A stretch of DNA of 64,000 bases. It comes from Takakia lepidozioides. Lineage: Eukaryota > Plantae > Bryophyta. Positions 11,101 through 64,000 of this stretch are shown in pieces. Numbering within the stretch: position 1 is the stretch's first letter; the number at the start of each line of letters is the position of its first letter. The notes under the pieces are model-generated. The model saw only the letters and a list, made by a program, of their open reading frames with translations. It searched no databases and was not told the DNA's origin. The translations under genes and the position numbers were made by a program. The stretch is from positions 56,048,001-56,112,000 of the forward strand of contig CM060734.1 of the NCBI GenBank assembly GCA_030704615.1, read 5' to 3'.

Positions 11101-11575
11101 GCCGAGGTATCCGCCTTGGCCTCCCACCGATTCATTGTAATTTACAGGGAGAATGGCAAAGGCAAACCCTTCCAGACTATTTGTTTCTCTTCAATATCCT
11201 CTCTGCTCTTTCCGTGGCGATCCAAGTATCATCACAGCCACAAATACAGTGCTAAAAGAGAACACAGAGCCTGAAGCGTCCTTGAATCGAATGGGTGTGG
11301 GATGCATACACCTCCCAGTCGAAGGGGAAGGGTGTTGATCAAACCATATATATTCAAACCACTGAGGTGATTCGAAACAAGTTTGACTACGAACCTCGTA
11401 AGGGCCTCCACCCCGTTCAATTGCTTCACCTTGCAAACCTTCAAATATTTGCGGTTCTATAAGTGTGCCATTAGTGGTGGGGTAGGTGAAGTCGACGAAT
11501 GGCGCAGACGAAGTGAGCACCACCACTGTTGAGCAGGAAAAAACCGAACACGAAGACAATGGTGAAGAGCCTCAT
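8162..11575 (-). pseudogene. L-type (legume) lectin receptor-like kinase, probably pseudogenised; exons 11575-10028, 9875-9643, 8499-8162
   Basis: Signal peptide MRLFTIVFVFGFFLL, lectin motifs (FSFSTVF, GFAF, FAVEIDT, HVGVDINS, YVGFTSA), a TM helix, and an RD kinase (GRGGFGSVYKG, HRDVKAANV, DFGLAR, GTLGYLAPE, DVYSFG) with GT-AG introns. There is a 1-nt frameshift near 11497 and an in-frame TGA at 11191-11193. Confidence 0.9.
8825..9185. mobile_element. MITE in LecRK intron 2
   Basis: Imperfect TIRs (gggtaaaacacccta...tatgaccgttca / tgaacggtcatagggtgttctaccc) flanked by TA on both sides. Confidence 0.6.
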
Positions 11576-20466: not shown

Positions 20467-22273
20467 CTAGAGAGAAGGTTGAGATCTTGATGTAGAAATA
20501 CTTTCACAACCAGGACAGTTATGAAGGCTCTCATGAATGTAAAGGTCACATTCAAAGCAGAAGTGCTGCCTGCAGCTTGGACACATGAGCCGCACCCCGC
20601 TTACCTTGCCCCCTGTCATACAAACAAAACAGCAGATTGATGAGCATCCTGTGCAGAAAAAAATGATAAATGCCAGAGAGAGACAACTTGTGAAAGAGGT
20701 ACCTGTGAAAGGGAGTTCCTGCTGGCAGCCATAACAGAGAAGGGCTATGCTTTGCTTCCCATTTGCCTCCGCCAAATTACCAAACTCCTCAAATGGGGGC
20801 ACTGGAAAAAGATGGTGATAAGAGCGTGCCAAGTGGGGAGATGAAACCAATGTCAGCCCACATATGTGACACTCAGTGGGAAGGTCACATACACGAGCTT
20901 TGCAACGTGGGCAGGTGTAACCTCCCCCTATCTTCACTTCTCTGTGGCAAGCACAGAGTGCCACTGCATCTTCTGCACCCCTTTGTGGAAAGCCCATTCG
21001 TACTAGGCTTGCTATAGCTGTCTCTGCCAGTGCTGGAGGGGGTGGGGCATGCTCCATTATAAGGTCTTTCAAGTGGGCCTGTATGAGAGCACATGTTGTG
21101 CTTAGTGTATGTGACCAAGAGAAGTGGGCGAAGTAAGAGCTATGAGCTCCCCAAGAACTCAAATGCTCCAAGTAATGAATGTATCAACTGCACTGGTATT
21201 GCAGAGAATTCAAAAATGAGAACCACAAGGGAACACTGAAGTTGGATTTGAGGAGGTATTAGTTCCACCATACAATGGAGGTCACATTCTACTTGGACAA
21301 GGGTCTGCAATACCAATGATGCACTCAAAACTTGCCAATGACGTAAAAAAGCTGATACTGTAGCCCACATTCTTTCCACAAAACATACATGGTGATGAGA
21401 AAGAGAGGCCAGCACCCACAAACCTCGCTTGTTGCAACGGAATAAATCCCGCTCGTTCGTTCACATAAAAGTTTACAAATGTAAACTTCAGCAGCCAGGC
21501 CTACAACAGAGCATCGGATATTAGCCTCCTTGCACTTCTGGATTGCCTCCATGATGTCTCCAGGGTCACAGGTGCTAAGTGCTGAAAAGATGAGCACCAT
21601 CTCCCGGTGCCCATACGTGGGTATTTGAGACAAAAAACCTCTGGCCAAGTCAAGTGCATTCTGTATCGACACATCCCCTGTGCACTCAAGATTTCCCCTG
21701 AGTGCCTTAATGTGGGTTTCTGGACTCCCACTCAAATCTGTCAGACGGTGGGCAACACCATTGCGTAATGTAATCACCCCAAGATGACTCAGAGGATTTT
21801 GGTCAAAGAACTCCCGCACAAAGGCCTCAACACAGTTGGCCACGATTCCCATGCGGCTGGGCCGGAAGTCCATCTCCGCAGCCGCCTGGGCAGGCATCCC
21901 ACGGTCCCCCAGTTTAGAATGAGGCATTCATCCTTTCCTCCAAATTCTGGCGCTGGGGTTTAAGGACGAAAAACTTGAAGTGAAGTTTGCGGGATCAACT
22001 CACTCGGGAGAGATCGACGAGGAGGTAGAGGTAACGGATGATGCCGCGCTGGATGTGAGGCCCAGCCATGGCTGCAACCTTCTTTCGATGCTGGCGCTGC
22101 TGCTGTACAACATCCACAGGTCGCAACAATCCAGCCTCATCCTCTTGAAGAGCCTCCCAAGACCGATCGTCCGCGTACGCCCGCTCCCAGGCCTCCATGT
22201 CCCGCCCGGCTTCCTCAGCGTCCATATCTCCATCATCTTCCACACCGTATGCCACATCTTTCTCTCCACCCAT
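20467..22273 (-). CDS. GTF2H2: General transcription factor IIH subunit 2 (p44/Ssl1); exons 22273-22004, 21885-21424, 21078-20703, 20612-20467; ~417 aa
   Basis: WERAYADDRSWEALQED, vWA-like Ssl1 domain (FFDQNPLSHLG, STCDPGDI), C4 finger (CPRCKARVCDLPTECHICGLTLVSSPHLARSYHHLFP) and C-terminal CFECDLYIHESLHNCPGC. The spliced length of 1254 nt keeps the frame. Confidence 0.97.
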
Positions 22274-22591
22274 GTGTCTCTTTGGACAAACTATTTGCTT
22301 GCTGTCTGATGGAAGACGAGTGCCTCAGTCTAGAGATTGCTGTGCTGTTGCTGCGAATCCCTTCTCAGAGCTGGCCGGTCCGCATGAGCAGATCGGAGAG
22401 AGACTAGAGATACTAGACATGGCCTTCCTCTTATTCTGCTCTCTGTTCTCTTCCTCAACTCTGATCTTTTGTGACGAGTGAAGCCTCGTTACTCTGCCTA
22501 ATGATTTTGTAAGGTTCTTTTATCCTTACTTTTCTTTTTCTTCTTCTTCTTCTTCTTTTTCTGTTTTTTCCTTACTTATAGCTTATACCGA

Positions 22592-22814
22592 TATGCAGTA
22601 GCTCAGTTGGTAAAGTGTACTAAGTGCCACCCTGATGATACTGGGGTCAAATCTTGCTACTGACGGGTGTGGTATGGTTTCTGGGTGTTGCCCCATTCCT
22701 TCGCGCCCCAGGGCGGGTTACTGTGAAAGAGGTTATTTTCTCCTCTCACTATCAAGGGGCCTGGTTTGTGAGCTGTCGATCCCAGGTGTTTTCCCCTAAG
22801 ATTTTTTTTTTTTT
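22592..22814 (+). mobile_element. tRNA-derived SINE-like element
   Basis: A-box TAGCTCAGTTGG, degenerate B-box GGGTCAAATC, no intact cloverleaf, and a T-run at the end. Confidence 0.6.
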
Positions 22815-25699
22815 ATCAGGGCTACAATCCATCCTCCTGTTAAAGTCTCTTCCTGTAGCAGCGAGTCTAGTCAATGTCACGAATGGAATTCTCAAGCCTC
22901 ATTACCTCGTACAACAATCGGAGTTGTAGACGTGTTTCAATCCTCTAGTCGTCAGCCAAATGTAGAGCGATTGCATCCATGATCAGTGTGCAGGTACAAG
23001 GAGAAATCTTCAGATTGAGGGGAACTGACAAGGAAGGGTTTTTTCCCAGTTTTGAGATGAGGATGTAGAAGATTAGGAGACGGGCATGCATACTGGAAGT
23101 CCTTGGCTCATAGAACCTAGATACCTTCATCAGATAACCAGTTTTACGTGTTTCCCATTCCCTGTTTACAAATACTGAGCATCGGAAATCGGTAGTTCAA
23201 TATACCCTTCGGCAGTAGCAAACTCCATCATTGAAATCTAAGGATGCTATTGCATAGGGAGTGACGCACACTCTTGATATAAGTGGGGCGGCACTCTGCA
23301 TGCAACGCAGAGCCCACTCTATCAAGCAGTGGCAAAGGGTTCTCCTTCCTAAATTTGGAAGTTTTGTGCGTTAAGGTCCAGCCAAGAGTCGTGGGTGGAT
23401 GTAATAGAAGGCTCTTTGTTTCACATGTGTTACTTGCTGAGCTACAGGCAGATCCCTTCTTCTCTACTTGCTGATATGCTATGCTTGTGTAAGTAAAGAT
23501 CTCAGTTGTGCAAGATAGCAATTGCATCTCTTAATGTTTTGTTCTAAGGGCCAGGACCCCTAGTTGGATGTCACAACTGCAGAATTATGCAGGAGATTGA
23601 TTGAGAAAGGCAGAGATGATATTCTCCTGAAGAAAGTGTGCTGAATTGCAAATTTTTCGCCCAACTCATGTTAGCATTTCAGCATAGGGACTACTGTGTG
23701 TTCCGTAGGGTTGCGTTGTTAGCTAGATAATCTTAGGTTGTCATTGTCAGGTAGCAGCATGGGGGAGGATCCTTGCATTGTTGTTGTCGAGGCAGGGATA
23801 GCTGAAGGAGGCAGGTATGGTGTGGGTTCAGCTCCATCCAAGAGGGCCGGATTTCAAGCATAAGAATCCCACTGAGCCATCAAGGATTGATAACTACAAG
23901 ACACCTGCATTTGTAGATGGTCAACTGGATGCAGCAGCAGCAGCACAAGTAGTACACTCAGGCACCTCCACCATGACAACCGATCCCAAACAAGGACCAA
24001 GACACAAGGTCTCTTCTGGCACTTGTGGATAGGTGACTACTGTTCTTTCCAAAGCTTTTCCTCATCTTTGTTTTTTATTTTCGAATATTAACCTGCAACC
24101 CATCCCTGTCACATGCCAAAATAGTTGTAACCACCAGAGATCCACCTGATGAGCTAAATCATAGAACTCATTACCAACAAGTAGGGACACATCTGAGGGA
24201 AAGTACAAAACTAGCCTAAATGTACTGAAAAACAAGGCGCCCTCACCACATTGTGCTTGACCTCGTGTCATGGAAGCAGCTAGCTTGGAGGATTCAACCA
24301 ATCCTCAATCCAAAGGACCTATTGTGCACTCTCCTTATCTTTGTAGTCTGGTGATCTCTGATTGGTCTGTGAAAACGTGCAGCTGAGCGGCCATGGTTTT
24401 AAACATGGCCTCCTAAGACCAAGCCACCCCTCCCAAGTACCTGGTACACCAGGAGAAACCCTTGGGCAATGCATCTTTACATGTGCCACTTCTGCTGGCA
24501 CTGAAAGGGCAAAGGCCATTTCTGCTAACTCCTGAGCTTTGACTTCAAGATCCTGAAGTTTGCGATGCACCAGTTGCTGTGCTCTATGACATTCCTTCAT
24601 ATCCACCCCAAGTCCCCAATTCTCCATGTCTGCCAGCACTCCTACCTGACCACATGTGTCTTGTCACACAGCTCACCTCCCTTTCTCCGTGACCATTTGT
24701 TGCATTCAGAAAGTTTCCTCTCAAGCCATTCCATAAACCCGATTAAATAATGGCTGATATAGCTCCTTCTTGTCATTCTCTCTGAGATTCCATGGATGTC
24801 ATGGAATTACTTCCTTCCTTTCTTTCACTTTGCTAGTGTGCTCCCAAGACAATATTTTCTGTTGCATCACCAAACTCACGCCTCCTAAAATAGCCTGTGA
24901 CTAGAAGCGAATGGAAGCTTCAGATTTATGCGAGGTATCCCTTTGCCTAAATTTGCACCTACTTATCTGGAAAGGAACAAAGTTTTTTTATGCTGCCATG
25001 ATTTATGACCTACATCTTAGGGTGGTGTTACTTATAGGGATCCTTCATTATCTTTAACCTCGTCACACTTCACTTGAAACACACTGATTGAGAGGCAGGT
25101 GATGCGGAAAGCATCATTGAATGTTCAACGAGAGTTGCCCAAATTGCGAAGGATGGAGGAAAAATATTACCAAGGGCATTTCGAGTTGAAGGAGAGGATG
25201 GTCGAGGCCCTCTGTCATTAACAGCTTCCAAAAAGCCAAATGCAATGCCCACACTTGTGCTGCCCCACGGCAGCAACCATTACCTGCCACACAACCCATC
25301 TGGTTGCCCCACCTTCCTGCCCTGCTGGCAGCAGCTGCAACCTCACCAGGCAATCTCTTCTTTACTTCCTCTCAGATATATTAGCAAAACACTCGTCAAC
25401 CTTCATTCATCATGCTGCAACCTACATCTCACCTGCTGGGAAGAGGGAGGAAAGAGAAATCAAGTTGAATCAAGGCCTTGCTTTGCATACTATGTACACA
25501 ACTTATCTCCAAAGAAGTCAAAGATTCAGGTATTACCAGGTCATCAATGCACGAGACACTCAGCGTGTGCAGACAACTGCCCAAGGAATGCACAAGATGA
25601 CATAATTTTTTCTTTTGTTAGCGCTTCACTTTCCAGCTACAAACTTCTTAAGAAGGAACCATAGCTTCAAACATCAGATATAGGTAGTTTGTGTTTAGC

Positions 25700-27522
25700 T
25701 TGAGTGGCTTATACTTACGAGCAAAATCTCCACTCTAGCCCTTGTGAACCTTCAAGAAATGGGTTTATCTACTGTACCACCTGCCTCCCAAATAGCTCGT
25801 CAATTTCAGCATATTCAACTTAGACATCTAAACCATTTGCTGCACCCAACCACAGTAAAGAATCCATTCCCTGTGTCGGCTTGCTTAGTTCATGACAAAT
25901 GGCTCACAACAATAGGGACAATTGTTGACAAATAGGCCTCTACCTTCAGCTCAAGTCATCGCATGCTATTAGAACAATTGTAAGTTTCTGGAGACACATA
26001 AACAAGCATTGCAACAAGGGTAGTCAGCTGCTCAAGGGAAGCCAGGCAGCAACACGCACATCAACCATGGGCTCCTGTAGCTTTACAGCCGGTAATGCCT
26101 TGAGCTGGCTCCCTTGTGGCTTCAACTCAATTGTATTCTCTAGGGTGGCAAATTAATTAAGCCCTGGTCTACCAAAAGCATGAACTTGGCTCTTAAGATC
26201 CCAGCCAATCTTCTTTACGCCCGTGTTGGTTGAAGCCTGGGTAACCTTGTTCCATCGTGTCTTATTTATGTCCTCCCAAGCATTGGATTTGTAATTTATT
26301 GCCACCATGGGCACTTCCACCACATCTACTCAATGACCTGAGTTGGTAAAAAAAGTTGATGTAGTAAACAGGTGAGTCCTTCCAACCAAGCCCATGTCTT
26401 TCGAGTCTTCCTGCCCTGGATTTTGGCACTGCTCCTTGTCTTAATGTACAACATCGGAAGTAAGGTACCTTGCAGACATTCGTCTCCATCAAACCAAAGA
26501 GAAACTACCTTTCTTTAAATACTCTCAATGGCTGGCAAGTGCATGTACTTGACACTCAGATATCTGGCCTTCATAGCGGTTCTAAATAGAAGTTGCACTT
26601 CCTCGAGGTTGTAAACACTGAGGTACTTTCTTCAGAAATGAAGGCTACATACAATAAAGTTACATGTCCTAGAAGCTTGCAAGGTGTCATTGGAGACAAG
26701 ACCCAGAAACACTTAAGGTTGAGGTGCTTCATCTTTTCACATCTTTCATGCACCTTTGCATGCCTAAAGAAAGAGGATTAAAGAGACATTGTACACAAAG
26801 TACCATTATCATCTGAAGCTGTCCAAGCTCCAGTGTCTGCATGACCTTTGAAACCACATAAATTGACTGTGCGTGCTATCTGAACAGGTTCTATGTAGCG
26901 CCTTCACCAGGTGGACTTGGTTTTGCTCCAGCTGCTGAAAGGTAATTTCTTCTAGACTTTGTCCCTCTGTCTACCTCTGCCCTCCCACGTATCATTAGCC
27001 TCTATAGTGTGACATCGAGTGCATTTGCAGCCACATGTATCACATTGGTGTGAAGGCAAAGTAGTCAAATAGCTCTGCCAGAGTTAGCATTCTGCTACAT
27101 AGGAAGATGGAATTGCCAGCCATTACATAAACATTCAACAACCCCTGTAGCAGCGCCTCCTGGGTTGTGAGTTGTGAGCACTTCTGAAACAAATTTGTGC
27201 TCTGGTATAAACTGGTGGGTCGAACTGCTGCCTCCTGGAGGGTCCTCAACGGTGTGGCATAGCCAATGTTGACAAAGAAATGGGTGCACGGCTCACATGG
27301 TGTGGTGTGTTGTAAAGGCAGGTTCGTGAAAGTGTTCGCAATGGTGTGGCCCCGTTTATATCCTCTCAGGGGCCCTGAATCTGGGCAATCGATATGGGAT
27401 AATCGAACCCCAATCATATTGCACCAGGTGGCGGAGAGAATACGCCACCTGCTTTTAACGCCAGAGAACGGGCCGTGTTTGGCCGATTCTGCCCTGTGCG
27501 CGGCCATAGGGCGGCTAATCAC
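25700..27522 (-). pseudogene. Highly decayed KDZ (Kyakuja/Dileera/Zisupton)-like transposase remnant, tentative; duplicated at ~31860-33681
   Basis: CxC-like segment CEPCTHFFVNIGY...RPTSLY...LF, followed in order by weak LERHGL, GWDLKSQ and GAHG*CAC motifs; many stops. Confidence 0.3.
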
Positions 27523-28598
27523 AAAGCTGTTGCGGGCTGGTGGGTATGGCTCGATTGCTGCTCTCGTCTTTGTTTTGTCTTGGAACAGACTGCTAGTTGC
27601 TGCATCTTTGATCGCACCCGAGGAGAGATTTGTCTGTGTGCCTTTGAAAGCATTGAATTGTCAAATGTCTGATTTATCAGAAGAATGCAATGTAGGCTCT
27701 CAAGGTCTAGTTAATATGCATGCCTGTCCTACTGCATCAGAACAGATAACTGATCAGTTTGCGAAGTGAGCAGTTTGAGCTGTCTGTAAAATCGTTTTTA
27801 TCAAATAAGTACCCACAACTCAGATGTGTTCGCTTCTTTCTATGCACATTTTGCAGAGCATAGGCCTTAGCTCCGGTGGTGGACAAAGGGTTGAAGTTGT
27901 TCACAGTTTATTTTAATTCCAAATCGCAACTCCATGTATATTTCTGTTTCTGCTTGATAGATTGTTGCAAGTCCTTCTGCCATTTTACCTCTTGGTCATT
28001 TTTTCCAAGGGTTATGCAACATAAGATCTGAGTTTTGTCTTCACTATGTCGCAGGTTGCTAGTTGTAGAGGGGATAGGGTTTCAAGGTGTGGCAGTTGGG
28101 TGCATGTTCACAACCAAATATATGGCACTCGCTGTGTTCCTTCCTCGCTTTTCCTTTCCCTTCCCTTTTCCCTTTCAAAGATTTAGGTGGTAGTCTTAGT
28201 GCTGGAGTGACAGTCTGGAATAAGAATAAACATTGTTTTGCAATACATTGCTTAAAATGTCTGCACCTCTAGCAGGATTTCCACGGACTATGCTTGAGCT
28301 GGCTTGTCTTAACTTTCACCCTGATAGGAAACTGGTGAGTATTTCCCCAAAAACAGGGCATACCGCAGGGGACATGGCTACAACAACACATGAGTACCTC
28401 TCTGTTGTCTCACGCAATGAATGGAACAAGGAAAAATGCGAGATAAGACCAAATATTGAAGGAGCTGATGGAAGAAGGATAGATGTGCCAATTCTAAGGA
28501 GGTCTCAACGGGAAAGAAAAGCTCCTAGTAGGCTGATTACATCTATGAGTGCCATTGAAGCTATGGAAGAAGCATCAGAAGTGGTTGAACCTGTTGCA

Positions 28599-31500
28599 CT
28601 CTGTTCTCTTCCTCAACTCTGATCTTTTGTGACGAGTGAAGCCTCGTTACTCTGCCTAATGATTTTGTAAGGTTCTTTTATCCTTACTTTTCTTTTTCTT
28701 CTTCTTCTTCTTCTTTTTCTGTTTTTTCCTTACTTATAGCTTATACCGATATGCAGTAGCTCAGTTGGTAAAGTGTACTAAGTGCCACCCTGATGATACT
28801 GGGGTCAAATCTTGCTACTGACGGGTGTGGTATGGTTTCTGGGTGTTGCCCCATTCCTTCGCGCCCCAGGGCGGGTTACTGTGAAAGAGGTTATTTTCTC
28901 CTCTCACTATCAAGGGGCCTGGTTTGTGAGCTGTCGATCCCAGGTGTTTTCCCCTAAGATTTTTTTTTTTTTTATCAGGGCTACAATCCATCCTCCTGTT
29001 AAAGTCTCTTCCTGTAGCAGCGAGTCTAGTCAATGTCACGAATGGAATTCTCAAGCCTCATTACCTCGTACAACAATCGGAGTTGTAGACGTGTTTCAAT
29101 CCTCTAGTCGTCAGCCAAATGTAGAGCGATTGCATCCATGATCAGTGTGCAGGTACAAGGAGAAATCTTCAGATTGAGGGGAACTGACAAGGAAGGGTTT
29201 TTTCCCAGTTTTGAGATGAGGATGTAGAAGATTAGGAGACGGGCATGCATACTGGAAGTCCTTGGCTCATAGAACCTAGATACCTTCATCAGATAACCAG
29301 TTTTACGTGTTTCCCATTCCCTGTTTACAAATACTGAGCATCGGAAATCGGTAGTTCAATATACCCTTCGGCAGTAGCAAACTCCATCATTGAAATCTAA
29401 GGATGCTATTGCATAGGGAGTGACGCACACTCTTGATATAAGTGGGGCGGCACTCTGCATGCAACGCAGAGCCCACTCTATCAAGCAGTGGCAAAGGGTT
29501 CTCCTTCCTAAATTTGGAAGTTTTGTGCGTTAAGGTCCAGCCAAGAGTCGTGGGTGGATGTAATAGAAGGCTCTTTGTTTCACATGTGTTACTTGCTGAG
29601 CTACAGGCAGATCCCTTCTTCTCTACTTGCTGATATGCTATGCTTGTGTAAGTAAAGATCTCAGTTGTGCAAGATAGCAATTGCATCTCTTAATGTTTTG
29701 TTCTAAGGGCCAGGACCCCTAGTTGGATGTCACAACTGCAGAATTATGCAGGAGATTGATTGAGAAAGGCAGAGATGATATTCTCCTGAAGAAAGTGTGC
29801 TGAATTGCAAATTTTTCGCCCAACTCATGTTAGCATTTCAGCATAGGGACTACTGTGTGTTCCGTAGGGTTGCGTTGTTAGCTAGATAATCTTAGGTTGT
29901 CATTGTCAGGTAGCAGCATGGGGGAGGATCCTTGCATTGTTGTTGTCGAGGCAGGGATAGCTGAAGGAGGCAGGTATGGTGTGGGTTCAGCTCCATCCAA
30001 GAGGGCCGGATTTCAAGCATAAGAATCCCACTGAGCCATCAAGGATTGATAACTACAAGACACCTGCATTTGTAGATGGTCAACTGGATGCAGCAGCAGC
30101 AGCACAAGTAGTACACTCAGGCACCTCCACCATGACAACCGATCCCAAACAAGGACCAAGACACAAGGTCTCTTCTGGCACTTGTGGATAGGTGACTACT
30201 GTTCTTTCCAAAGCTTTTCCTCATCTTTGTTTTTTATTTTCGAATATTAACCTGCAACCCATCCCTGTCACATGCCAAAATAGTTGTAACCACCAGAGAT
30301 CCACCTGATGAGCTAAATCATAGAACTCATTACCAACAAGTAGGGACACATCTGAGGGAAAGTACAAAACTAGCCTAAATGTACTGAAAAACAAGGCGCC
30401 CTCACCACATTGTGCTTGACCTCGTGTCATGGAAGCAGCTAGCTTGGAGGATTCAACCAATCCTCAATCCAAAGGACCTATTGTGCACTCTCCTTATCTT
30501 TGTAGTCTGGTGATCTCTGATTGGTCTGTGAAAACGTGCAGCTGAGCGGCCATGGTTTTAAACATGGCCTCCTAAGACCAAGCCACCCCTCCCAAGTACC
30601 TGGTACACCAGGAGAAACCCTTGGGCAATGCATCTTTACATGTGCCACTTCTGCTGGCACTGAAAGGGCAAAGGCCATTTCTGCTAACTCCTGAGCTTTG
30701 ACTTCAAGATCCTGAAGTTTGCGATGCACCAGTTGCTGTGCTCTATGACATTCCTTCATATCCACCCCAAGTCCCCAATTCTCCATGTCTGCCAGCACTC
30801 CTACCTGACCACATGTGTCTTGTCACACAGCTCACCTCCCTTTCTCCGTGACCATTTGTTGCATTCAGAAAGTTTCCTCTCAAGCCATTCCATAAACCCG
30901 ATTAAATAATGGCTGATATAGCTCCTTCTTGTCATTCTCTCTGAGATTCCATGGATGTCATGGAATTACTTCCTTCCTTTCTTTCACTTTGCTAGTGTGC
31001 TCCCAAGACAATATTTTCTGTTGCATCACCAAACTCACGCCTCCTAAAATAGCCTGTGACTAGAAGCGAATGGAAGCTTCAGATTTATGCGAGGTATCCC
31101 TTTGCCTAAATTTGCACCTACTTATCTGGAAAGGAACAAAGTTTTTTTATGCTGCCATGATTTATGACCTACATCTTAGGGTGGTGTTACTTATAGGGAT
31201 CCTTCATTATCTTTAACCTCGTCACACTTCACTTGAAACACACTGATTGAGAGGCAGGTGATGCGGAAAGCATCATTGAATGTTCAACGAGAGTTGCCCA
31301 AATTGCGAAGGATGGAGGAAAAATATTACCAAGGGCATTTCGAGTTGAAGGAGAGGATGGTCGAGGCCCTCTGTCATTAACAGCTTCCAAAAAGCCAAAT
31401 GCAATGCCCACACTTGTGCTGCCCCACGGCAGCAACCATTACCTGCCACACAACCCATCTGGTTGCCCCACCTTCCTGCCCTGCTGGCAGCAGCTGCAAC

Positions 31501-34500
31501 CTCACCAGGCAATCTCTTCTTTACTTCCTCTCAGATATATTAGCAAAACACTCGTCAACCTTCATTCATCATGCTGCAACCTACATCTCACCTGCTGGGA
31601 AGAGGGAGGAAAGAGAAATCAAGTTGAATCAAGGCCTTGCTTTGCATACTATGTACACAACTTATCTCCAAAGAAGTCAAAGATTCAGGTATTACCAGGT
31701 CATCAATGCACGAGACACTCAGCGTGTGCAGACAACTGCCCAAGGAATGCACAAGATGACATAATTTTTTCTTTTGTTAGCGCTTCACTTTCCAGCTACA
31801 AACTTCTTAAGAAGGAACCATAGCTTCAAACATCAGATATAGGTAGTTTGTGTTTAGCTTGAGTGGCTTATACTTACGAGCAAAATCTCCACTCTAGCCC
31901 TTGTGAACCTTCAAGAAATGGGTTTATCTACTGTACCACCTGCCTCCCAAATAGCTCGTCAATTTCAGCATATTCAACTTAGACATCTAAACCATTTGCT
32001 GCACCCAACCACAGTAAAGAATCCATTCCCTGTGTCGGCTTGCTTAGTTCATGACAAATGGCTCACAACAATAGGGACAATTGTTGACAAATAGGCCTCT
32101 ACCTTCAGCTCAAGTCATCGCATGCTATTAGAACAATTGTAAGTTTCTGGAGACACATAAACAAGCATTGCAACAAGGGTAGTCAGCTGCTCAAGGGAAG
32201 CCAGGCAGCAACACGCACATCAACCATGGGCTCCTGTAGCTTTACAGCCGGTAATGCCTTGAGCTGGCTCCCTTGTGGCTTCAACTCAATTGTATTCTCT
32301 AGGGTGGCAAATTAATTAAGCCCTGGTCTACCAAAAGCATGAACTTGGCTCTTAAGATCCCAGCCAATCTTCTTTACGCCCGTGTTGGTTGAAGCCTGGG
32401 TAACCTTGTTCCATCGTGTCTTATTTATGTCCTCCCAAGCATTGGATTTGTAATTTATTGCCACCATGGGCACTTCCACCACATCTACTCAATGACCTGA
32501 GTTGGTAAAAAAAGTTGATGTAGTAAACAGGTGAGTCCTTCCAACCAAGCCCATGTCTTTCGAGTCTTCCTGCCCTGGATTTTGGCACTGCTCCTTGTCT
32601 TAATGTACAACATCGGAAGTAAGGTACCTTGCAGACATTCGTCTCCATCAAACCAAAGAGAAACTACCTTTCTTTAAATACTCTCAATGGCTGGCAAGTG
32701 CATGTACTTGACACTCAGATATCTGGCCTTCATAGCGGTTCTAAATAGAAGTTGCACTTCCTCGAGGTTGTAAACACTGAGGTACTTTCTTCAGAAATGA
32801 AGGCTACATACAATAAAGTTACATGTCCTAGAAGCTTGCAAGGTGTCATTGGAGACAAGACCCAGAAACACTTAAGGTTGAGGTGCTTCATCTTTTCACA
32901 TCTTTCATGCACCTTTGCATGCCTAAAGAAAGAGGATTAAAGAGACATTGTACACAAAGTACCATTATCATCTGAAGCTGTCCAAGCTCCAGTGTCTGCA
33001 TGACCTTTGAAACCACATAAATTGACTGTGCGTGCTATCTGAACAGGTTCTATGTAGCGCCTTCACCAGGTGGACTTGGTTTTGCTCCAGCTGCTGAAAG
33101 GTAATTTCTTCTAGACTTTGTCCCTCTGTCTACCTCTGCCCTCCCACGTATCATTAGCCTCTATAGTGTGACATCGAGTGCATTTGCAGCCACATGTATC
33201 ACATTGGTGTGAAGGCAAAGTAGTCAAATAGCTCTGCCAGAGTTAGCATTCTGCTACATAGGAAGATGGAATTGCCAGCCATTACATAAACATTCAACAA
33301 CCCCTGTAGCAGCGCCTCCTGGGTTGTGAGTTGTGAGCACTTCTGAAACAAATTTGTGCTCTGGTATAAACTGGTGGGTCGAACTGCTGCCTCCTGGAGG
33401 GTCCTCAACGGTGTGGCATAGCCAATGTTGACAAAGAAATGGGTGCACGGCTCACATGGTGTGGTGTGTTGTAAAGGCAGGTTCGTGAAAGTGTTCGCAA
33501 TGGTGTGGCCCCGTTTATATCCTCTCAGGGGCCCTGAATCTGGGCAATCGATATGGGATAATCGAACCCCAATCATATTGCACCAGGTGGCGGAGAGAAT
33601 ACGCCACCTGCTTTTAACGCCAGAGAACGGGCCGTGTTTGGCCGATTCTGCCCTGTGCGCGGCCATAGGGCGGCTAATCACAAAGCTGTTGCGGGCTGGT
33701 GGGTATGGCTCGATTGCTGCTCTCGTCTTTGTTTTGTCTTGGAACAGACTGCTAGTTGCTGCATCTTTGATCGCACCCGAGGAGAGATTTGTCTGTGTGC
33801 CTTTGAAAGCATTGAATTGTCAAATGTCTGATTTATCAGAAGAATGCAATGTAGGCTCTCAAGGTCTAGTTAATATGCATGCCTGTCCTACTGCATCAGA
33901 ACAGATAACTGATCAGTTTGCGAAGTGAGCAGTTTGAGCTGTCTGTAAAATCGTTTTTATCAAATAAGTACCCACAACTCAGATGTGTTCGCTTCTTTCT
34001 ATGCACATTTTGCAGAGCATAGGCCTTAGCTCCGGTGGTGGACAAAGGGTTGAAGTTGTTCACAGTTTATTTTAATTCCAAATCGCAACTCCATGTATAT
34101 TTCTGTTTCTGCTTGATAGATTGTTGCAAGTCCTTCTGCCATTTTACCTCTTGGTCATTTTTTCCAAGGGTTATGCAACATAAGATCTGAGTTTTGTCTT
34201 CACTATGTCGCAGGTTGCTAGTTGTAGAGGGGATAGGGTTTCAAGGTGTGGCAGTTGGGTGCATGTTCACAACCAAATATATGGCACTCGCTGTGTTCCT
34301 TCCTCGCTTTTCCTTTCCCTTCCCTTTTCCCTTTCAAAGATTTAGGTGGTAGTCTTAGTGCTGGAGTGACAGTCTGGAATAAGAATAAACATTGTTTTGC
34401 AATACATTGCTTAAAATGTCTGCACCTCTAGCAGGATTTCCACGGACTATGCTTGAGCTGGCTTGTCTTAACTTTCACCCTGATAGGAAACTGGTGAGTA

Positions 34501-34752
34501 TTTCCCCAAAAACAGGGCATACCGCAGGGGACATGGCTACAACAACACATGAGTACCTCTCTGTTGTCTCACGCAATGAATGGAACAAGGAAAAATGCGA
34601 GATAAGACCAAATATTGAAGGAGCTGATGGAAGAAGGATAGATGTGCCAATTCTAAGGAGGTCTCAACGGGAAAGAAAAGCTCCTAGTAGGCTGATTACA
34701 TCTATGAGTGCCATTGAAGCTATGGAAGAAGCATCAGAAGTGGTTGAACCTG
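28599..34752 (+). repeat. Tandem duplication unit B
   Basis: Near-identical to 22441-28593. The junction carries 5 nt (TTGCA, 28594-28598). Unit B runs on into the Copia pol. Confidence 0.97.
28750..28973 (+). mobile_element. tRNA-derived SINE-like element (duplicated copy)
   Basis: Same as 22592-22814 with one extra T. Confidence 0.6.
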
Positions 34753-36627: not shown

Positions 36628-39387
36628 GACCACATTATCTGTATGAGAATTTTTAATTATTCTGAAGACAACTACCTAGACTTAAGGGAAATCAAGATCA
36701 GCTGCAAACTGCTTCAAGAATTAGTCGACTCCATTTGTACGTACTAGTTGCAATGACTACAGCTCTGCAATTGTTACAGCCTCTGGCCTCATAGCCTATG
36801 CGTGATGTGTTGGCGCAGGCGTCATGGTTCCTTCTTGTGTATAGCTCTACTGCCTCCAGTATACGCACTGCTCACTTGAGTGAAAGATCAAATGTCAGGG
36901 CCGCAGGAATGTGAATTCTTGCTTTTCCTACATTTGCACATGTCTTGTCACAAACACCAACAAGCCATGTCTTAGCATGTCAAGTGATATGCAATACTGG
37001 GATAATGTCCAGGTTCATACATTCATTTGTCCTCATCAAGTGATGGCACAAAGTAGGAGAAAGTATGCATCCAGGACATTCGCAACCAGCATGTCATGGG
37101 CAATACACAAACTTGCAGGCAACTATAAGATTGGAAATGACATGCTAGAATTCTCCATTGCAACTCCGATTACAGGTCAGGGACAAGGTTAACGAGATGA
37201 TGACTATACCTTTTCAACAAAAGAACAGTTGTGGTAAACAGACACCACGACAGGGGAGACGCAGCAATATGTGTCTTCCTACTCAAGGGAGCTAAAGAGA
37301 TTCACGGGAGGAAAGGGGGACAGAGACAATAATGCAAAAGGGCCGAAAGCGGGAGCGGGGGAGCGGCGAGGCTAGGTACAAGCCGTAGCCATTGCTCTCG
37401 ATGTCCCACGAATTGGATCGAATCAAATCGGAACATATCCTGCATATCGCGGAGTGACGCGCCATGTGTGAGCTCATGTCATGTTTGGCCCAGTTTGAAG
37501 GATGGTAGGTACACGAGCAACGAGGGATCTCCCGTCGCCACGTGCGCGTTTTTGGTTGGTCCTGCTCAACCAAAGAACTTCAGACCACCAAAAGTGGAGG
37601 GTGTGAAACAAGACGAGATGTCGGTACGTGGAGTTCTTTTTTGAGACATCGAAGGTGCTGTGAATTTTTACTAGTATCTCACCGAGGTTTGAACACCAGT
37701 CTGTTTGAAATGTTGGGTACGTAATTTTGTGACCGTTGGATGCTGACTAGTACTGGCATATCGCGGCTGTCCATAATGGCGCCATTCAACATTGTAGTGC
37801 GCCAGTAAGTAAGCGGCTATAGCCCAGGGTTTTTTTTTGCTTTAAAAGGGATTCACGCTGCTCGAAGGCACTTGTGTTGCTGCTGAGAGAGGAGGATAGA
37901 CAGCTTGGGATCTGATGTGTGCGTGATAGAGATTAGTTCGGGCAGCGAGAGCTCGCTGCTTGAGCGGGCCAATCGGATACACGAGGGAGAGGGGCTGCCT
38001 GGTTGCTCTAGGTTGAAGCGAAGGAGCTGGTCAGAGCGATGTGGAAATGAAATGAAATGAAATGGTGCTTTATAACATCTGCGGAAAGCTCATAGAGCTT
38101 ATGGGACAAAATGGAAGAAAACATGAGAGAGGAACAAATCCAGAAACCACAATTAATGTTCTAGCGATTGTCTAAGGATGAAGGCCTCGTGCAGGTAGGC
38201 TGCCAAGCATTTTTGATCCTCATAGTGGAAGACATCAGTGATTTGGGTTCCACTGAATAAACAGTGGAATCTCCCATGGATCTCGTAGTATAGAGGGCAG
38301 TAGAAGAAGAAGTGTTCTTCAGTTTCAATTTCCTTGTTGCGCCCTATGCAAGCTGGACATAGGCGGTCCTCCCATTGCAGGTTTTCCCATCTGCCAGTCT
38401 CTATCCATAGGTTGTGGGAACCCACCCCGAATTGCCCCAATGCCCTCAGGAGGGAAGGAGATAAGGATGCTGAAAGGTAATTTGGTCTCAAGATTCTATC
38501 ATCACGGAGCACCAAGAATGTCTCTCAATAGAAGTGGAGCTTTAAGCTCGCACGACAAGTATATTACCGGTAGGGCCACAGAAGTCTTTAAGAACCGTGA
38601 CAATGAATTCTACGAACATAGACTGATGTGAGGGCAATAAGTTTAGAATTCAAGATGTATCTATAGAGCAGCTTTCTTTACTGACTATGGCATCGGATAT
38701 TGTGGTGAATTGTAACAGCCTATTGCTCACGATGGTTCAATTCAATCGAGGCTATTTCTCGCCCAAACAAAGAAGTTAGCCTTGGAGTTTCGTCACACAC
38801 ACGTGGACCAGCTTGTGAGGAGCGAGGGCAATTTTGATTAGCCTCTAGTGACTCTTCAAAGATCATGACTCTATAAAAAGTTTTTGTAAAATTTGTAAGG
38901 CTAGTTTCTATCTAGCTCGACAGCGGTAGTAAGTAGGAGTACAACGTAGTAGGAGCAAGGTAGCACAGGAGACCACTCGTCGCCGGAGCTCGACGGATTG
39001 ATGTACTCATGGTGTGTTCCCATGGAACCCGGGCGTCAAAACCCGCCATCTACATCGTCCAAGAGCCTCCCATCCAAGAGCCCAAGTTATGGAATATAGC
39101 ATGGCCTGTGTTCCCCTGGAACCGGGGCGTCCCCTGACCTGACAGTCCGACTGTGTCCAACAGCCTTATTCGGACGACATTGCACGGGGCGTCAAAGCCT
39201 GCCCGTTCCTATCGTGTGGCTTCTTGGAGATGCAGGTCTCCAGGCCGTCACCCTTTCTGCAGAGACGGGGGAAGGCTTGGAACCGGCCTTTGCGACCACA
39301 CCATTATGACTGCCAGTAACTGCAGTCTGCGCTGAGCGGCTTCCGCGATGATGCACAAGTGGGCTTTGCCTCTGCAATGTTCGCTTG
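36628..39387. mobile_element. Unclassified ~2.8-kb dispersed element, copy 3 (interrupted by a LINE fragment)
   Basis: Same termini as copy 2 and colinear except for 38048-38542. Confidence 0.9.
38048..38542 (-). mobile_element. 5'-truncated LINE 3' end with (CATTT)n tail
   Basis: ORF 38153-38515 GSHNLWIETGRW...RLCPAC...ETEEHFFFYC (ORF2 C-terminal CCHC) and a microsatellite tail at ~38045-38063. Confidence 0.85.
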
Positions 39388-40339
39388 GGAGTAAAAGTGC
39401 CATCGTTGTAAGGCATGGAATTATAGTTGCAAAACTTTAGCATTAGGATCAATTCATTGTAACATGGCATCATTCACACATGTTTTTGCTCTCTGTTCCA
39501 AGAACTGCCCTACATTTTCCCTCATGGTATCTTCCATGATGCATGGTTTACACTATACACATATATTTTGGGTGATCTGGATGGTGGTGACTTCTGAAAT
39601 AGTCGGCATAGCCCTTGAATGCAGATGTGAAGTGCACATCTGAGTACCATATTACTTCACTCTGGTGGAGTCCAGCGAGCTAGATATGGATTGTCAAGGT
39701 TTGGACACCAGCAGCAATTTTTTTTAATCAACCTTTTTCAGTTCCCACCGTCTGCTTGGTCACTCAGTTGGCAGAGCATCGCTAGAGAGAAGTAACTTCC
39801 CTTTTCCAGTCGGACTGACTAGCAGAATTGTAGGCAACCTATAGGTAGACAACCGGCTCGAAACCAGGAGTTGGAAGGGGAACAGAAACCAAGTAGGCTC
39901 AAAAGAACACCACGAAACCATGAGCTTGGAAGGGAACAGAAAGCCCATGAGCTTGCAAGAGCTTGATACAACCAGATGCTTAGCCTCTTTCAAACTCACA
40001 TTTCAGAACCTAAAATTGTGTCCAAAACAATAGGGTAGTTTTCAACAGTTCAGAATCATGTCCTAGCTTCAACTGTGCAAGATCATTACGGGTGGGGCAT
40101 TGACCTAACCAAACCTTCAAACTGAGATCTGAATCTAGTACTGGACCGTGTATTCAATCTCACAGCATGTGCGGCGTCTAGTAGTTATGTGCATCTGGCC
40201 GACAATATCAACATGAGAGTCGATTTGAAGCCATAGTTCTCTAATTACTACTGGCCAGACGAAGTCATTCAGTTTTTCAGTCTGATACTGCTCCTTGTAA
40301 GCAGGTACCCATCATTTCGCAAAAGCTTGCAGTCTGAGT

Positions 40340-43500
<3,161 letters not shown>

Positions 43501-58534: not shown

Positions 58535-59150
58535 CCGATTTTTCATCCGTAGGATGAATAATCCATACCCTTTCTCTTAAGAACCTGATAGATGTCATCC
58601 ATTAGCTAGGTTTATAGGGTAGGAGTTAGGGTTTCACTCCTTAATTAGCAATAATTAAGGGTAATTAGAAAAATCTCCATGGCCATCATAAGCTGTTTTT
58701 TTCATCCGGTCCAGATGAAAAAATAAATAGGTTCATTTGTTTGGATGAGGTCCATCAGCAGGATGATAATTAATATTAACCAGGGCAACGGTTTTTCATC
58801 CCAACAGGTAATTTGTCATCCCTTAAGAGAAAGCCTCATCCAGTACGGAAAAAAACCGTAAAAGGGGAAATAAAACGAATTCAGATCCTGGTATTTTTCA
58901 TCCGGCATGGATGGAAAAATTATAGATAGGACGCCAGTGTCATAACCCTTATAGAGGTAATTTCTCAGTCTCTAGAGACCTATCTGATATAGATGAAAGT
59001 CAATAAAAGAGGAATGAAAAATTATAAGTCCTTTTTAAAGGTACTTTAGTGTCCACCCAGGTGATTCTTCCGGTAGGGATAGAAGACCTTTACAAGTCGG
59101 GTGAAAACACCTTTTAGAGTCCATCTGGTATAGATGGAAAATCATGAAAA
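58535..59150. repeat. Cluster of short palindromes TTTTTCATCC-N-GGATGAAAAA; probable DNA-transposon subterminal repeats
   Basis: Units at ~58538, 58696, 58792, 58894 and 59120. Confidence 0.6.
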
Positions 59151-59989: not shown

Positions 59990-61125
59990 CAATTGGTAGA
60001 TACAAAGAGCACACAAATGAATGGGTTACTCATCTTTTATCCCTGAAAGAAAAGCCTCAGACTTATGTACTGACCATTAACAGTTAATGAGCCAAATCAT
60101 TTTTTGATCCCCAAGCAAATCCATTCTTTCCACAACATCTTTGAAGTATGGCACCAAAATCTTGTGGACAAACTGTTGGCACGTTCTTTGATTGGACCAG
60201 TGATTGTCAGTCATTGTGAAGTGGAAGCCATAGTCCAGGCACAATTTTGCATTTGCCGTTTTTGGTAAGCAACGATCTATTTTGCGTGTGAAAATCACCT
60301 ACATCGGAAGTAGTGTTCCATCACGTGCTGAGGAGACACAAACAGTCACCTATCTCTTATCTTCCATTCCAATGACCTTGATATCTTTTGACCCTTTCCT
60401 CTCCCAAGTGTGCTCTCGTGCCGTGGGAACCAAGTGAGTACCTGTGAAATGAAGCCACATATCTATCAATAAACAAAGAATATGTATGTACAATTTACAT
60501 ATATACCACTGACCAATGACATCTTGTAACCAAAACCCTAAATCAACACATGTAAATTGTGACTTGAAGACAAATATCATAATACCTGTCTGGTCCATGT
60601 TGACAATTAAAGCATGTGGAATGTCATATGCTTTAACCGAATATGCAACCCTGTAAGCCATGAACATTCATTGATTTTCCCAATCTGATGGAAGTTTGCC
60701 ACAAGCTGTGGTAGCACGTCTGCAACTCCAATCCAAGTGAATCTTCATAAAAGTTTGTGTCCACTTCGACGAGATCTTATAATTTTTCCAATATCTCAGG
60801 AGCACGAGCAGTGACAAAACCCAAAATAATGGGTTGAACAATTCCAGCACTCTATGGTTGCCATGCATCTCTCATCCTCAAAAGCAAATCACACAACTCA
60901 CGAATAAGATCTGGTCTCTGAGACAGAGGACCTTTGTGTTGAAAAGCAGCAGTAAATTGAATCGAATATCTTGGCTTCAAGGTACCAGTAGAGATAAACC
61001 ACGGATACAAGGAACTTCTACTCAGCTTCTCGAAAGGCCTTGTACTCTTGTCTGGCTCCCTGTAGACCCGTGCCACAAAGTATGTGAAAATTTACATAGT
61101 AACCACTTTGAGAATCTTAACTTCC
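59990..61125 (-). pseudogene. pogo/Tc1-mariner-like DDE transposase pseudogene with one intron (60585-60442), interrupted by the Gypsy insertion
   Basis: RRATTACGKLP, IVNMDQTG|THLVP, EDKR*VTVC, GTLLPM*VIF, NHWSN and WLINC*SVH-like motifs. The GT-AG intron restores the frame. Confidence 0.85.
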
Positions 61126-61302
61126 TGTCGTGCGCATACATATCGCTACACAACTACATCGTTGTCCAAAACCACACAACACATGTGCACACCACACACT
61201 AGTATACCACTAGTCCAACCACTAGTCCAACCACTAGGCTACAACTAGTCAGTCACTAGGCTGCCACTATGCTGCCCACTATGGCAGTCACTAGTCCACA
61301 CA
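61126..61302 (-). repeat. Terminal repeat A' (177 bp, TG...CA)
   Basis: Direct repeat of 61620-61796, with one mismatch seen. Confidence 0.95.
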
Positions 61303-61619
61303 ATAAAGAAGAAGAATACAAGCACGAGCTCATAAATCTGAAGCATAAACTCATGCATATATAACCTCATCACTCAAATACAAGTCAAGCCAAGTGCACC
61401 CCACGCCATGGGGAATCCACACTACGGCGCCATAGTTAGGCGCGGTGAGGCTCAACTCGAGAAAGATGAGCCTCCCGCGCTTGCCGTGAAGATAACCACT
61501 CCAGGGCCTAAATCTGCCTTGACCCCTGGATTGACACTTGGGCCAATCCCAAATGTCAATATGTAAAAGTTAGCTATTTCCTAGCTAGTTTCACACTAGT
61601 GGTAAAATAACTTGACAGC

Positions 61620-61796
61620 TGTCGTGCGCATACATATCGCTACACAACTACATCGCTGTCCAAAACCACACAACACATGTGCACACCACACACTAGTATA
61701 CCACTAGTCCAACCACTAGTCCAACCACTAGGCTACAACTAGTCAGTCACTAGGCTGCCACTATGCTGCCCACTATGGCAGTCACTAGTCCACACA
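61620..61796 (-). repeat. Terminal repeat A (177 bp, TG...CA), adjacent to the PPT
   Basis: The minus strand reads TGTGTGG...CACGACA immediately after the PPT. Confidence 0.95.
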
Positions 61797-62065
61797 ATCG
61801 CCCCCCTAGCTGGTGCTTAGGTCCCTCTAAGTCCAGGTAGCCACAAGATGTGATAGTGACCATAGCCTCACTAAGTCCTCCACCACTATCCCTACTATGC
61901 TCAAACTCGATAGATCAAGAGGCTGGGTGCAAGAGTTGCCCCATCGTTAGTCGCCGTCTTGCAACCTGTGAACTTGAGCTTGGGATCTCATGTATTGACT
62001 CCTATGAGCTTGGCCTCCCATGTCTTGTTAGCTGCCTCCAGTCGTGTCCACTGCCACTATCCCAA

Positions 62066-62199
62066 GCAGTGTGGACTAACCAATCTCCGTCAGGAACCTT
62101 CTCAAGACGTGGTGTCAAGCATCCCATATGCCAACTCTTTGAGCATCGATCACACACCAGCATGGTGGCTGCCCCTTTGGCAGACCCACAGAGCATGCA
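62066..62199 (-). pseudogene. PHD finger at the integrase C-terminus
   Basis: CMLC...MLVCDRCSKSWHMGCLTPRLEKVPDGDWL. Adding one base restores the final CPHC (TGG TTA [T]GT CCA CAC TGC), giving C4HC3. Confidence 0.9.
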
Positions 62200-63118
62200 C
62201 CTCAAACCTGCAGGTACCACTGCCAAGTTTGGGTCAACTCTGCCATCGACATTGGGAAGGTGACATGCACAATTACGCACATGGTCCTTCCAAGTCATGC
62301 CATCCCGACCCTCCAAGATCAGGACCCCTGAGGGCAACACCTCTCGAACCCTCAGAATAACACGCCCTGCAGTAACATCCAGAGTCGTAGGAGCAGTCTG
62401 CTGCAAATAAACATAGTCACCAGGGCTAAACCTCCGAACCCCATGACGATATCCTCCACCACGTATAGTGGCATACCTTAACGTATCACGGTGTTGTGCA
62501 ATGGCAAGGTTCTCAAAAGCCATGGGCATGACTTTCTTGAACAATTCTGCATGCTTCACATGCACGTACCCACACGTCCGGATCATCAAGGTTAAGGACT
62601 TGAGCAGTGTCCCTACGAATGGCTGCAGGCAAATCCGGCTCTCGGCCAAAGAGAAGGAAATATGGTGAGAAGGAGGCAAGTGATGCTTGTTTGCTGAACC
62701 TGTAGCCCATGGCTAACCAAGGAACCTGAAGATCCCAATCTCCTAGGTGTCCCTTCTGCAAGCCATACTTGCGCAAACCCCTCTTCACCGTCTGAACAAC
62801 TCTCTCTGCCAAGCCATCGGCCTCAGGATGATCCCAAGAAGTGGTGCGGTGGTCTATCAAGGCTTTATCACACAAAGCCTGAAACTCCCCCAAGAACTCT
62901 CTCCCTTGGTCCGTAAGTACCTCAGCTGGAGCACCAAATCGGCTAAGCACACGATCCAAGAATGCATACGTAGCCCCCTCACTAGCCTTGTCAGGCAATG
63001 GAACCAACTCAATCCACTTGGAGAAGTGCTCCACCATCACCAACACATATCTGTGGTGGCGCATAGTCAGTGGCAACGGTCCTGCGAAGTCAAGACTCCA
63101 CATGTAGCCCAATCCCAA
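62200..63118 (-). pseudogene. Retroviral-type integrase core and C-terminal region (frameshift near 62560)
   Basis: WSLDFAGPLP, FSKWIE, LTDQGREF, HPEADGLAERVVQTVKRGL (D-D-E triad), SPYFLLFGRE and FSPGDYVYL. Confidence 0.95.
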
Positions 63119-63393
63119 CCTGCCACTACTAGATCAATGGAACCAACCCGCTCCAAATCCTGCGCCCCCAGCAACGAAATGTCTGCTAGCAAGGCCTAAT
63201 GATATCCACGAATTGCAGACACCGACAACAACTCAGCGTACCGCTGCACCAATTGAGCAACATGGCGAAGTGAAACGCGTCGTGCAGTCTCATCCCTCTC
63301 CACATACAGGTAACGCCGAACTCGTACACCTGCCTGTAACACAACAACCAATCCGGTGTTGATCCCGCCAAACAAGTCTAGAAGACAAATGCC
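63115..63393 (-). pseudogene. N-terminal part of a DNMT3/DRM-like C5 cytosine methyltransferase domain
   Basis: Motif I LLDLFGGINTG, motif II YLYVERD, motif III ADI and the start of motif IV SIDLVVAGW, in one frame through a single TAG (63196-63198). Confidence 0.85.
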
Positions 63394-63789
63394 TTCATCC
63401 GGATACTGCCACACAATAGGTGTGGTGTCCAATGGAGACAACTGAGGTGGTCCTGGTGCAATCCCCGCACTCTCCTCCTCTCCTGACGGTACAAAAGCCT
63501 CCACCCAAGCTTGTTGCACCCGTCTATCAGCATCCCGCTACAAATCCTTGCTCGTGCTCCACAATGGAGTCTGAGCAACCATGGTAGGCAACTCCGCCAT
63601 ACCATACATGTCATCCTACTCTCCCGGAGGTGGCACATCCTCTGAATGAGCGTTGCCCTCAAGTAACTCTCTAGGCCAACTCACTGCCGTTGTGAATGCT
63701 GCTAGTGTCGGCATCTTGCCTCGCTGGGCAACCGCAACTCCTCCTATGAACGTCACAGGGAGCTGCACACGCCGGCCCTCCCCTGACTG

Positions 63790-64000
63790 TCATGCAGGCC
63801 TATAGGAAGCTGACTCCTCCCAAAAATCCAAGGTGAAGCCCATGGGGTACAACACTGCCCCACCAACCGGGACATCGTATGAGACCGCGTCTGTCACAAT
63901 GGCCTTGGCTCGCATCATTGAGCCATCTGTAGGATGATCCGGCCGTAGTCTGATAGCTAACTCACGCCGGGTCATGCCCCGAGCCTGCTCCGATCCTCCA
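63790..64000 (-). pseudogene. C-terminal part of a retroviral-type aspartic protease
   Basis: AIVTDAVSYDVPVGGAVLYPMGFTLDF resembles the protease C-terminal D-x-(I/L)-(L/V)-G motif and is in the same frame as the DNMT segment. The catalytic DTG/DSG would lie outside the window. Confidence 0.6.

Follow-up and report, generated by a model that had tools for sequence, protein, structure and literature searches.

A retrotransposon remnant with a cytosine methyltransferase domain

The window (the whole stretch of 64,000 nucleotides of contig CM060734.1 that was analysed) ends in a decayed, minus-strand retrotransposon that carries part of a C5 DNA methyltransferase (DNMT) and extends beyond the window edge (Table 1). 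A single frame of this element, read from 63999 to 63115, leads from the C-terminus of an aspartic protease through a linker into LLDLFGGI, YLYVERD, ADI and IDLVVAGW, thereby including the S-adenosylmethionine loop of motif I (LDLFGGI). A first-pass annotation of the DNA had proposed such a protease-linker-motif I–IV frame at 63975-63115, and the motifs lie where it placed them, ending at 63115. It had also attributed the stops in this frame to single transitions; at all four stop positions, the majority of host contigs have G or C, as that explanation predicts. The integrase and the PHD finger that it named are both recognised by Pfam.

PF00145, the family proposed for the methyltransferase, was not matched by the read-through translation of the truncated window piece (0 Pfam families), and a direct comparison with DNMT3A gave weak matches (E 0.11-0.25). 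A profile built from 22 relatives, with the window row excluded, matched the piece at E 6e-47, its sole match in the six frames of the window. The piece is 76% identical to the relative P0004 (E 9e-42).

Compared with seven of eight loci, about 2,985-2,991 bases are absent at 63115-63117 (the eighth locus has an extra insertion). The ~3.0 kb deletion removed the integrase zinc finger, RNase H (RH), reverse transcriptase (RT) and the catalytic half of the DNMT with its PC, ENV and RxR motifs. Host contigs diverging from the window at 63115 continue into the catalytic Pro-Cys motif, and others diverge at 63117 into the segment preceding the integrase core. In one run, 31,231 contigs cover 3.5 kb of the element versus one over its flank, a figure that is not a copy number and that indicates a family very repetitive in the host. 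The window copy is a dead, internally deleted member of an abundant retrotransposon family.

Table 1. Features of the window
Feature	Position	Strand	Remarks
L-type lectin receptor kinase (host gene)	8162-11571	-	
TFIIH p44 (Ssl1) (host gene)	20467-21927	-	
Alcohol dehydrogenase (host gene)	41379-43217	-	
Repeat B2	61126-61304	-	right end of the element, ...GACA; many-contig cover stops here
Repeat A2	61305-61617	-	copy of the left end of full-length relatives
Palindromic B1/A2 junction GACA-GC-TGTC	61614-61623	-	putative internal attachment site
Repeat B1	61620-61798	-	ends in GACA; 99% identical to B2
Polypurine tract	61799-61807	-	directly before B1; conserved in loci
PHD finger	62062-62211	-	PF00628, E 1.7e-8; frameshift near 62077 displaces the last Cys pair from the frame in this copy
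Integrase C-terminal segment	62230-62535	-	frameshift near 62555 upstream; presumably GPY/F-like
DDE integrase core	62618-63103	-	PF00665, E 6e-14
Junction of the ~3.0 kb deletion	63115-63117	-	3-base overlap; loose contig ends at 63115 and 63117
DNMT3-like C5-methyltransferase, motifs I–IV (predicted)	63115-63393	-	1 stop; ends just before the catalytic Pro-Cys
Protease-methyltransferase linker	63394-63795	-	same frame; 3 stops
Stop just downstream of the protease piece	63790-63792	-	in the read-through frame
Aspartic protease, C-terminal half	63796-63999	-	tblastn, 54% to family protease, E 5e-21; alignment; extends beyond the window

Architecture and distribution of the family

We found 19 longer homologous proteins with the DNMT segment, all at E 4e-23 or better, whose named sources are Marchantia polymorpha, Calypogeia fissa and Sphagnum. 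PF00145 is matched by 15 of them, and RT and RNase H are also present in two. A further search added relatives from Sphagnum fallax, S. jensenii and Closterium. From metagenomes, 80 of 90 confirmed loci, picked by their DNMT, were retained, and a distant locus (L001) was excluded from all counts. Because the same insertion was recovered via different assemblies (L066/L068 and L024/L051), the counts overstate independence.

The domain order in the retained loci is Gag, zinc knuckle, protease (PR), DNMT, RT, RH, integrase (INT) and PHD, and the PR-DNMT-RT-RH-INT-PHD order predicted for intact members is therefore found in relatives. Motifs I–IV occur in 79 of the 80 loci; where the sequence is long enough, so do motifs IV–VIII (66/66), RT (36/45), INT (23/28) and PHD (15/22). 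The RT is closest to that of Ty3 (E 6e-60 for the relative P0022), and the order PR-RT-RH-INT is as in Ty3/Gypsy. RT, or RT together with RNase H, is missing from L018, L066/L068 and L038, which keep the DNMT and the 3' end, and non-autonomous derivatives of the family may be common.

Since loci chosen by their DNMT are silent on its absence, a separate integrase-based search was performed, giving 150 representatives. The DNMT is present in 32 of the 34 that have 900 or more residues before the integrase (the two without it are 39% and 28% identical), and a PHD finger was detected in 88 of the 105 with 200 or more residues after it. These counts support the conclusion that the DNMT travels with this integrase clade. 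In many relatives (P0209, P0216, P0060, P0066 and others), one of them from the chlorophyte Tetrabaena, RNase H precedes the DNMT and the integrase follows it; the domain has changed place within one integrase clade. P0060 and P0066 have EC in place of PC.

One locus picked up by its integrase alone, L082, encodes the full set of domains in two long open frames, with nothing but a conserved stop between them. It comes from a bacterial genome bin and is probably misbinned. L083 and P0033 also sit in bacterial genome bins, and one of these three copies is annotated as a bacterial DNA cytosine methyltransferase; contamination is likely.

In a midpoint-rooted DNMT tree of 41 rows, which includes only 93 window residues and no host DNMT3, the window sequence falls in a clade with Marchantia, Calypogeia and Sphagnum sequences (support 100/100), and the Closterium relative lies outside this bryophyte clade on a long branch. 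Among viral contigs, the DNMT query gave 0 relatives in 11 candidates and the integrase query gave one distant locus (L001, 34%). The ESM Atlas yielded PF00145 clusters and rve+PHD clusters only.

A predicted DNMT3-like enzyme

When the family profile was compared with solved structures, DNMT3A/B/C were best (E 4e-12 to 6e-8), ahead of 4onj (2e-5), which we take to be a DRM, and of bacterial enzymes. A structure model of the relative P0023 (predicted local distance difference test score, pLDDT, 72.6; predicted template modelling score, pTM, 0.75) matches DNMT3B/3A at E 1e-15, and the motif order is unpermuted. Profile and model thus identify the predicted family enzyme as DNMT3-like. Of the "DNMT3/DRM style" originally assigned to the window piece, only the first half is retained: a DRM-type enzyme is ruled out by the unpermuted motif order and by DNMT3A/B being best in both comparisons.

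The GWPC, ENV and RxR motifs that were to be expected between protease and RT are present in relatives. FGG is kept in 72 of 78 decayed loci, PC in 61 of 64 and ENV in 63 of 69. In the intact L082, which matches PF00145 and has a DNMT ~50% identical, PC, ENV and RxR are all present. Between the window and the loci, pN/pS (the ratio of nonsynonymous to synonymous differences) is 0.31 for motifs I–IV, with pS near saturation. C>T decay in the copies proceeds at rates of 0.205 at CG, 0.239 at CHG and 0.066 at CHH, indicating that the copies are methylated, a pattern that does not identify the enzyme responsible. Domain scans of the homologs and of L082 detected no targeting domain on the DNMT.

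A conserved stop codon and a PHD finger on the integrase

In every one of the 27 loci whose DNMT-RT spacer is in frame, a stop codon occupies the same position after the DNMT (TAG or TAA, then CAA). The context of this stop in L082 matches what we take to be the read-through motif of tobacco mosaic virus. The conserved stop makes the DNMT part of the Gag-PR frame, and RT-RH-INT-PHD is likely to be produced by read-through. Since the stop splits Gag-PR-DNMT from RT-RH-INT-PHD, the main product is not one polyprotein. The PHD finger is the tail of the integrase, the frame ending 4-11 residues past it, so that reader and writer are likely to be separate mature proteins. The single polyprotein combining an epigenetic writer and a reader, as first envisaged, is not supported by these observations.

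The C4HC3 ligands of the PHD finger are kept in the family, and its nearest structures include the fingers of CHD4, KDM5B, DPF3, WSTF and ATXR5. The finger has no Trp two places before the His, a residue presumably typical of H3K4me3 readers; the binding specificities of the nearest structures are likewise our assumption. From its position, the PHD finger would likely guide the integrase and not the methyltransferase. No chromodomain (Chromo) match was found in the L082 frames.

Split repeats at the element ends

The 3' end of the window copy has the order B1, GC, A2, B2. Full-length loci also carry A at the left end, giving A...B-A-B in L013, L026 and L038, and an A...B form with a target duplication is found in five loci (L014, L017, L055, L062 and L066). 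An ordinary two-LTR (long terminal repeat) structure is ruled out by these ends. The "TG...CA repeat" noted at first is correct as to the termini, which begin with TGTC and end with GACA, and the repeat itself is a B-A-B split repeat. The elements are flanked by a 4-bp target duplication, matching at four of four positions in 7 of 8 loci and at three of four in the remaining one, versus 6 of 334 wrong pairings; L038, whose left end is truncated, was not counted. Duplication length and termini agree with the 4-6 bp and TG...CA of Ty3/Gypsy elements.

The B1/A2 join is a palindrome, GACA-GC-TGTC, in the window, in 6 of 6 loci with such a join and in L082 and L083, every departure from it being G>A or C>T. 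The start of B1 lies at the purine tract and the end of A1 at the primer site. Of the A2/B2 joins in five loci, three are flush and two contain filler, as end-joining predicts. On the alignment, the 11-mer at which A1 ends is complementary to bases ~31 nt downstream of the TATA box, and in 12 of 17 loci at least 9 of the 11 bases pair. In L082 the sequence differs, and the pairing is 12/12. An earlier, poorly anchored scan for this pairing was unconvincing (10/11 or better in 4 of 13) and was redone on the alignment. The signal resembles, as far as sequence can tell, the self-priming signal of Tf1.

The simplest reading of these ends would be a self-primed cDNA (complementary DNA) bounded by B+A, its end-joining into a circle and cleavage at the internal palindrome. 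Split ends of this sort point to a DDE integrase acting from an internal site of a circle. The A...B copies may arise from one-repeat circles, from double cutting or from later recombination. As they have no terminal repeat, programs that search for LTRs are likely to miss them.

A truncated second A piece lies at 87-252 of the window (minus strand). It is 78% identical to A2, begins exactly at TGTC (252) and has an unrelated flank, consistent with A being the left end of the element in this host.

A proposed replication cycle and its alternatives

In our view, the abundant Ty3/Gypsy family represented in the window by a dead copy is reasonably likely to use its DNMT3-like enzyme on its own new cDNA. 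In such a cycle, transcription would begin within repeat A, ~31 bases downstream of the TATA box. The 11-12 bases at the 5' end of the RNA would anneal to the site immediately behind A and so prime reverse transcription, no tRNA being needed. A small amount of RT-INT-PHD would come from read-through at the TAG-CAA, and the methyltransferase, produced at the level of Gag, would be packed into the particle. The product of reverse transcription would be a cDNA that has B+A at both ends, with the polypurine tract and the primer site as its boundaries. The integrase would disregard the ends of this cDNA and act instead on the palindrome within the repeat; a single cut of an end-joined circle with two repeats would give A...B-A-B, able to replicate again, and A...B copies would be dead ends. 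The PHD finger is likely to tether the integrase to nucleosomes with unmethylated H3K4, leaving the methyltransferase unsteered. The methylated cDNA would enter heterochromatin already marked, and the benefit of this is the least certain step.

Several observations weigh against this cycle. The RxR motif (RPR) is intact in just 33 of 67 loci, and the constraint on the DNMT, which is real, is weaker than that on RT (median dN/dS, the ratio of nonsynonymous to synonymous substitution rates, of 0.49-0.65 versus 0.34 among decayed copies). The C>T decay at CG and CHG fits ordinary host silencing, for which the element's enzyme is not needed. The corresponding enzyme of the charophyte Klebsormidium nitens gave no methylation in yeast, a result that its authors called inconclusive (PMC5890265). 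In 5 of 17 loci, no more than 7 of 11 bases pair at the self-priming signal, and B1-B2 recombination is another possible source of A...B copies. No circle was observed; L082 looks circular because of a 127-base assembly overlap. The left end of the window copy lies outside the window, with its target duplication and primer site.

Some of these points can be read in favour of other explanations. The K. nitens result and the weaker constraint would suit a DNMT domain that has lost methylation and now serves the particle as a structural or DNA-binding module, but we regard this as quite improbable, since FGG, PC and ENV are kept in more than 90% of decayed copies and are intact in L082 in spite of its divergence. 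Alternatively, the methyltransferase might be active on chromosomal copies, on the insertion site or on rival elements, thereby limiting or redirecting transposition. The abundant first frame would indeed give more enzyme than one cDNA needs, and self-limitation is raised as a possibility in the discussion of PMC5890265; the DNMT has no detected targeting domain, however, and packaging with Gag would place it beside the cDNA, which makes such a target unlikely. As to the ends alone, a circle would be unnecessary if the integrase cut linear cDNA at both internal palindromes, or if B1 and B2 recombined later. The five A...B loci with target duplications agree with this, whereas the A...B-A-B copies with exact duplications (L013 and L026) require the end of A to be joined to the start of B, a join that is sometimes ragged, and we find this explanation rather unlikely.

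That a fragment of a host DNMT3 was fused once to a Gypsy copy is hardly credible. The window DNMT is truncated and has no Pfam match, as such a chimera might, but host contigs run on from 63115 into the catalytic motif, the same architecture recurs in many loci, and the window DNMT belongs to the bryophyte clade of the tree. Loss of the DNMT from the same integrase family, the outcome that would have pointed to a chimera, is contradicted by the 32 of 34 representatives that have it.

Favouring cDNA methylation as we do, we offer a broader proposal tentatively, as possible though doubtful: an old Gypsy clade of the green lineage, extending from chlorophyte algae to mosses and liverworts, may combine self-priming, an active DNMT3 made at Gag level that methylates the cDNA in advance, integration of a circle via an internal site and a PHD-guided DDE integrase. 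If this is true, genomes rich in copies would have in such an element a mobile source of de novo methylation.

Relation to known elements

The host is probably a moss-like bryophyte, judging from the TFIIH p44 exon. Its identity is highest to Sphagnum (85%) and Ceratodon (84%), followed by liverworts (79-81%), a lycophyte (79%), Chara (70%) and flowering plants (63-72%), in agreement with the land-plant host assumed in the first-pass annotation.

The closest known element is KnitGypsy-Dnmt3 of K. nitens, a Gypsy element with a DNMT3-like domain for which cDNA methylation has been proposed (de Mendoza et al. 2018, PMC5890265). In both it and the moss family, the DNMT3-like domain is unpermuted and free of introns, and the repeats have a DIRS-like layout, for the Klebsormidium element according to the legend of Fig. 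4 in that paper; the moss family differs in having a land-plant host. The text of PMC5890265 available to us contains 0 mentions of PHD or moss, and target duplications, self-priming, palindrome and stop, described here for the moss family, are not described in the sections consulted. The likeness is drawn from the published description, and no K. nitens sequence was among our matches.

DIRS and PAT elements have an A...B-A-B layout, a proposed circular intermediate and a tyrosine recombinase. The moss family shares the layout and has instead a DDE integrase (rve) and 4-bp duplications; no tyrosine recombinase family was found in the two frames of L082. Tf1/Sushi and the moss Tcn1 chromoviruses are likewise Ty3/Gypsy elements, predicted to prime themselves without a tRNA, but they end in a chromodomain, whereas the moss family ends a few residues after the PHD finger (PMC6317226, with 0 mentions of PHD or methyltransferase in the text available). 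The foamy virus integrase cuts a palindromic junction in a two-LTR circle, similar to the cut proposed here; that palindrome is the join of two cDNA ends, whereas the one in the moss family lies inside the repeat (PMC1180852). EpiLTRs are LTR elements that similarly join DNA methyltransferases to a chromatin reader, but with DAM, a DNMT4-related enzyme and a chromodomain, and the preprint describing them sets them apart from streptophyte "Gypsy-DNMT3" (bioRxiv 10.64898/2026.05.21.726589). Troyka, described as having CG...CG ends and a 3-bp duplication and as found in animals only (PMC12440569), is ruled out by the TGTC...GACA ends and the 4-bp duplications.

PHD fingers on retrotransposons have been called widespread (PMC6673714). 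An opinion paper of 2019 states that such methyltransferase-bearing transposons are not in land plants such as tracheophytes (PMC6338049), and later literature gives the host range merely as "streptophytes" (PMC12344493), as far as the consulted parts of these papers go. Neither the occurrence of the family in land plants, bryophytes included, nor the end mechanism turned up in our literature search, which left figures, Repbase and subscription papers outside its scope. An element of this kind beside embryophyte-type genes had at first been called unusual. The moss family is a well-supported, new land-plant member of a kind known from a charophyte.

The function of retrotransposon-borne cytosine methyltransferases has been in question since 2018, in part owing to known hosts that are experimentally difficult, and the idea of cDNA self-methylation has so far been raised only for algae. 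Since copies of the family exist in the liverwort Marchantia polymorpha, whose methylation mutants are described as de-repressing transposons (bioRxiv 10.1101/363937), the question becomes directly testable there. The value of the finding lies in the host range, in this testability and in the proposed integration route. In public bryophyte annotations, gene models named as DNA methyltransferases are in part this element.

Other features of the window

The flank of the element at 60080-61100 (minus strand) contains a stretch with IVNMDQTG that has no Pfam match; it resembles what we take to be a decayed DDE DNA transposase, into which the element would have been inserted. A tandem duplication of 6.16 kb (22437-28593 and 28595-34752), 99.97% identical, is either very recent or an assembly artefact. 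An unclassified repeat occurs in three copies that are 82-91% alike (5714-8184, 14161-16950 and 36628-39388). Short repeated or inverted motifs of 20-30 bases at 58695-59141 are possibly the subterminal repeats of a DNA transposon.

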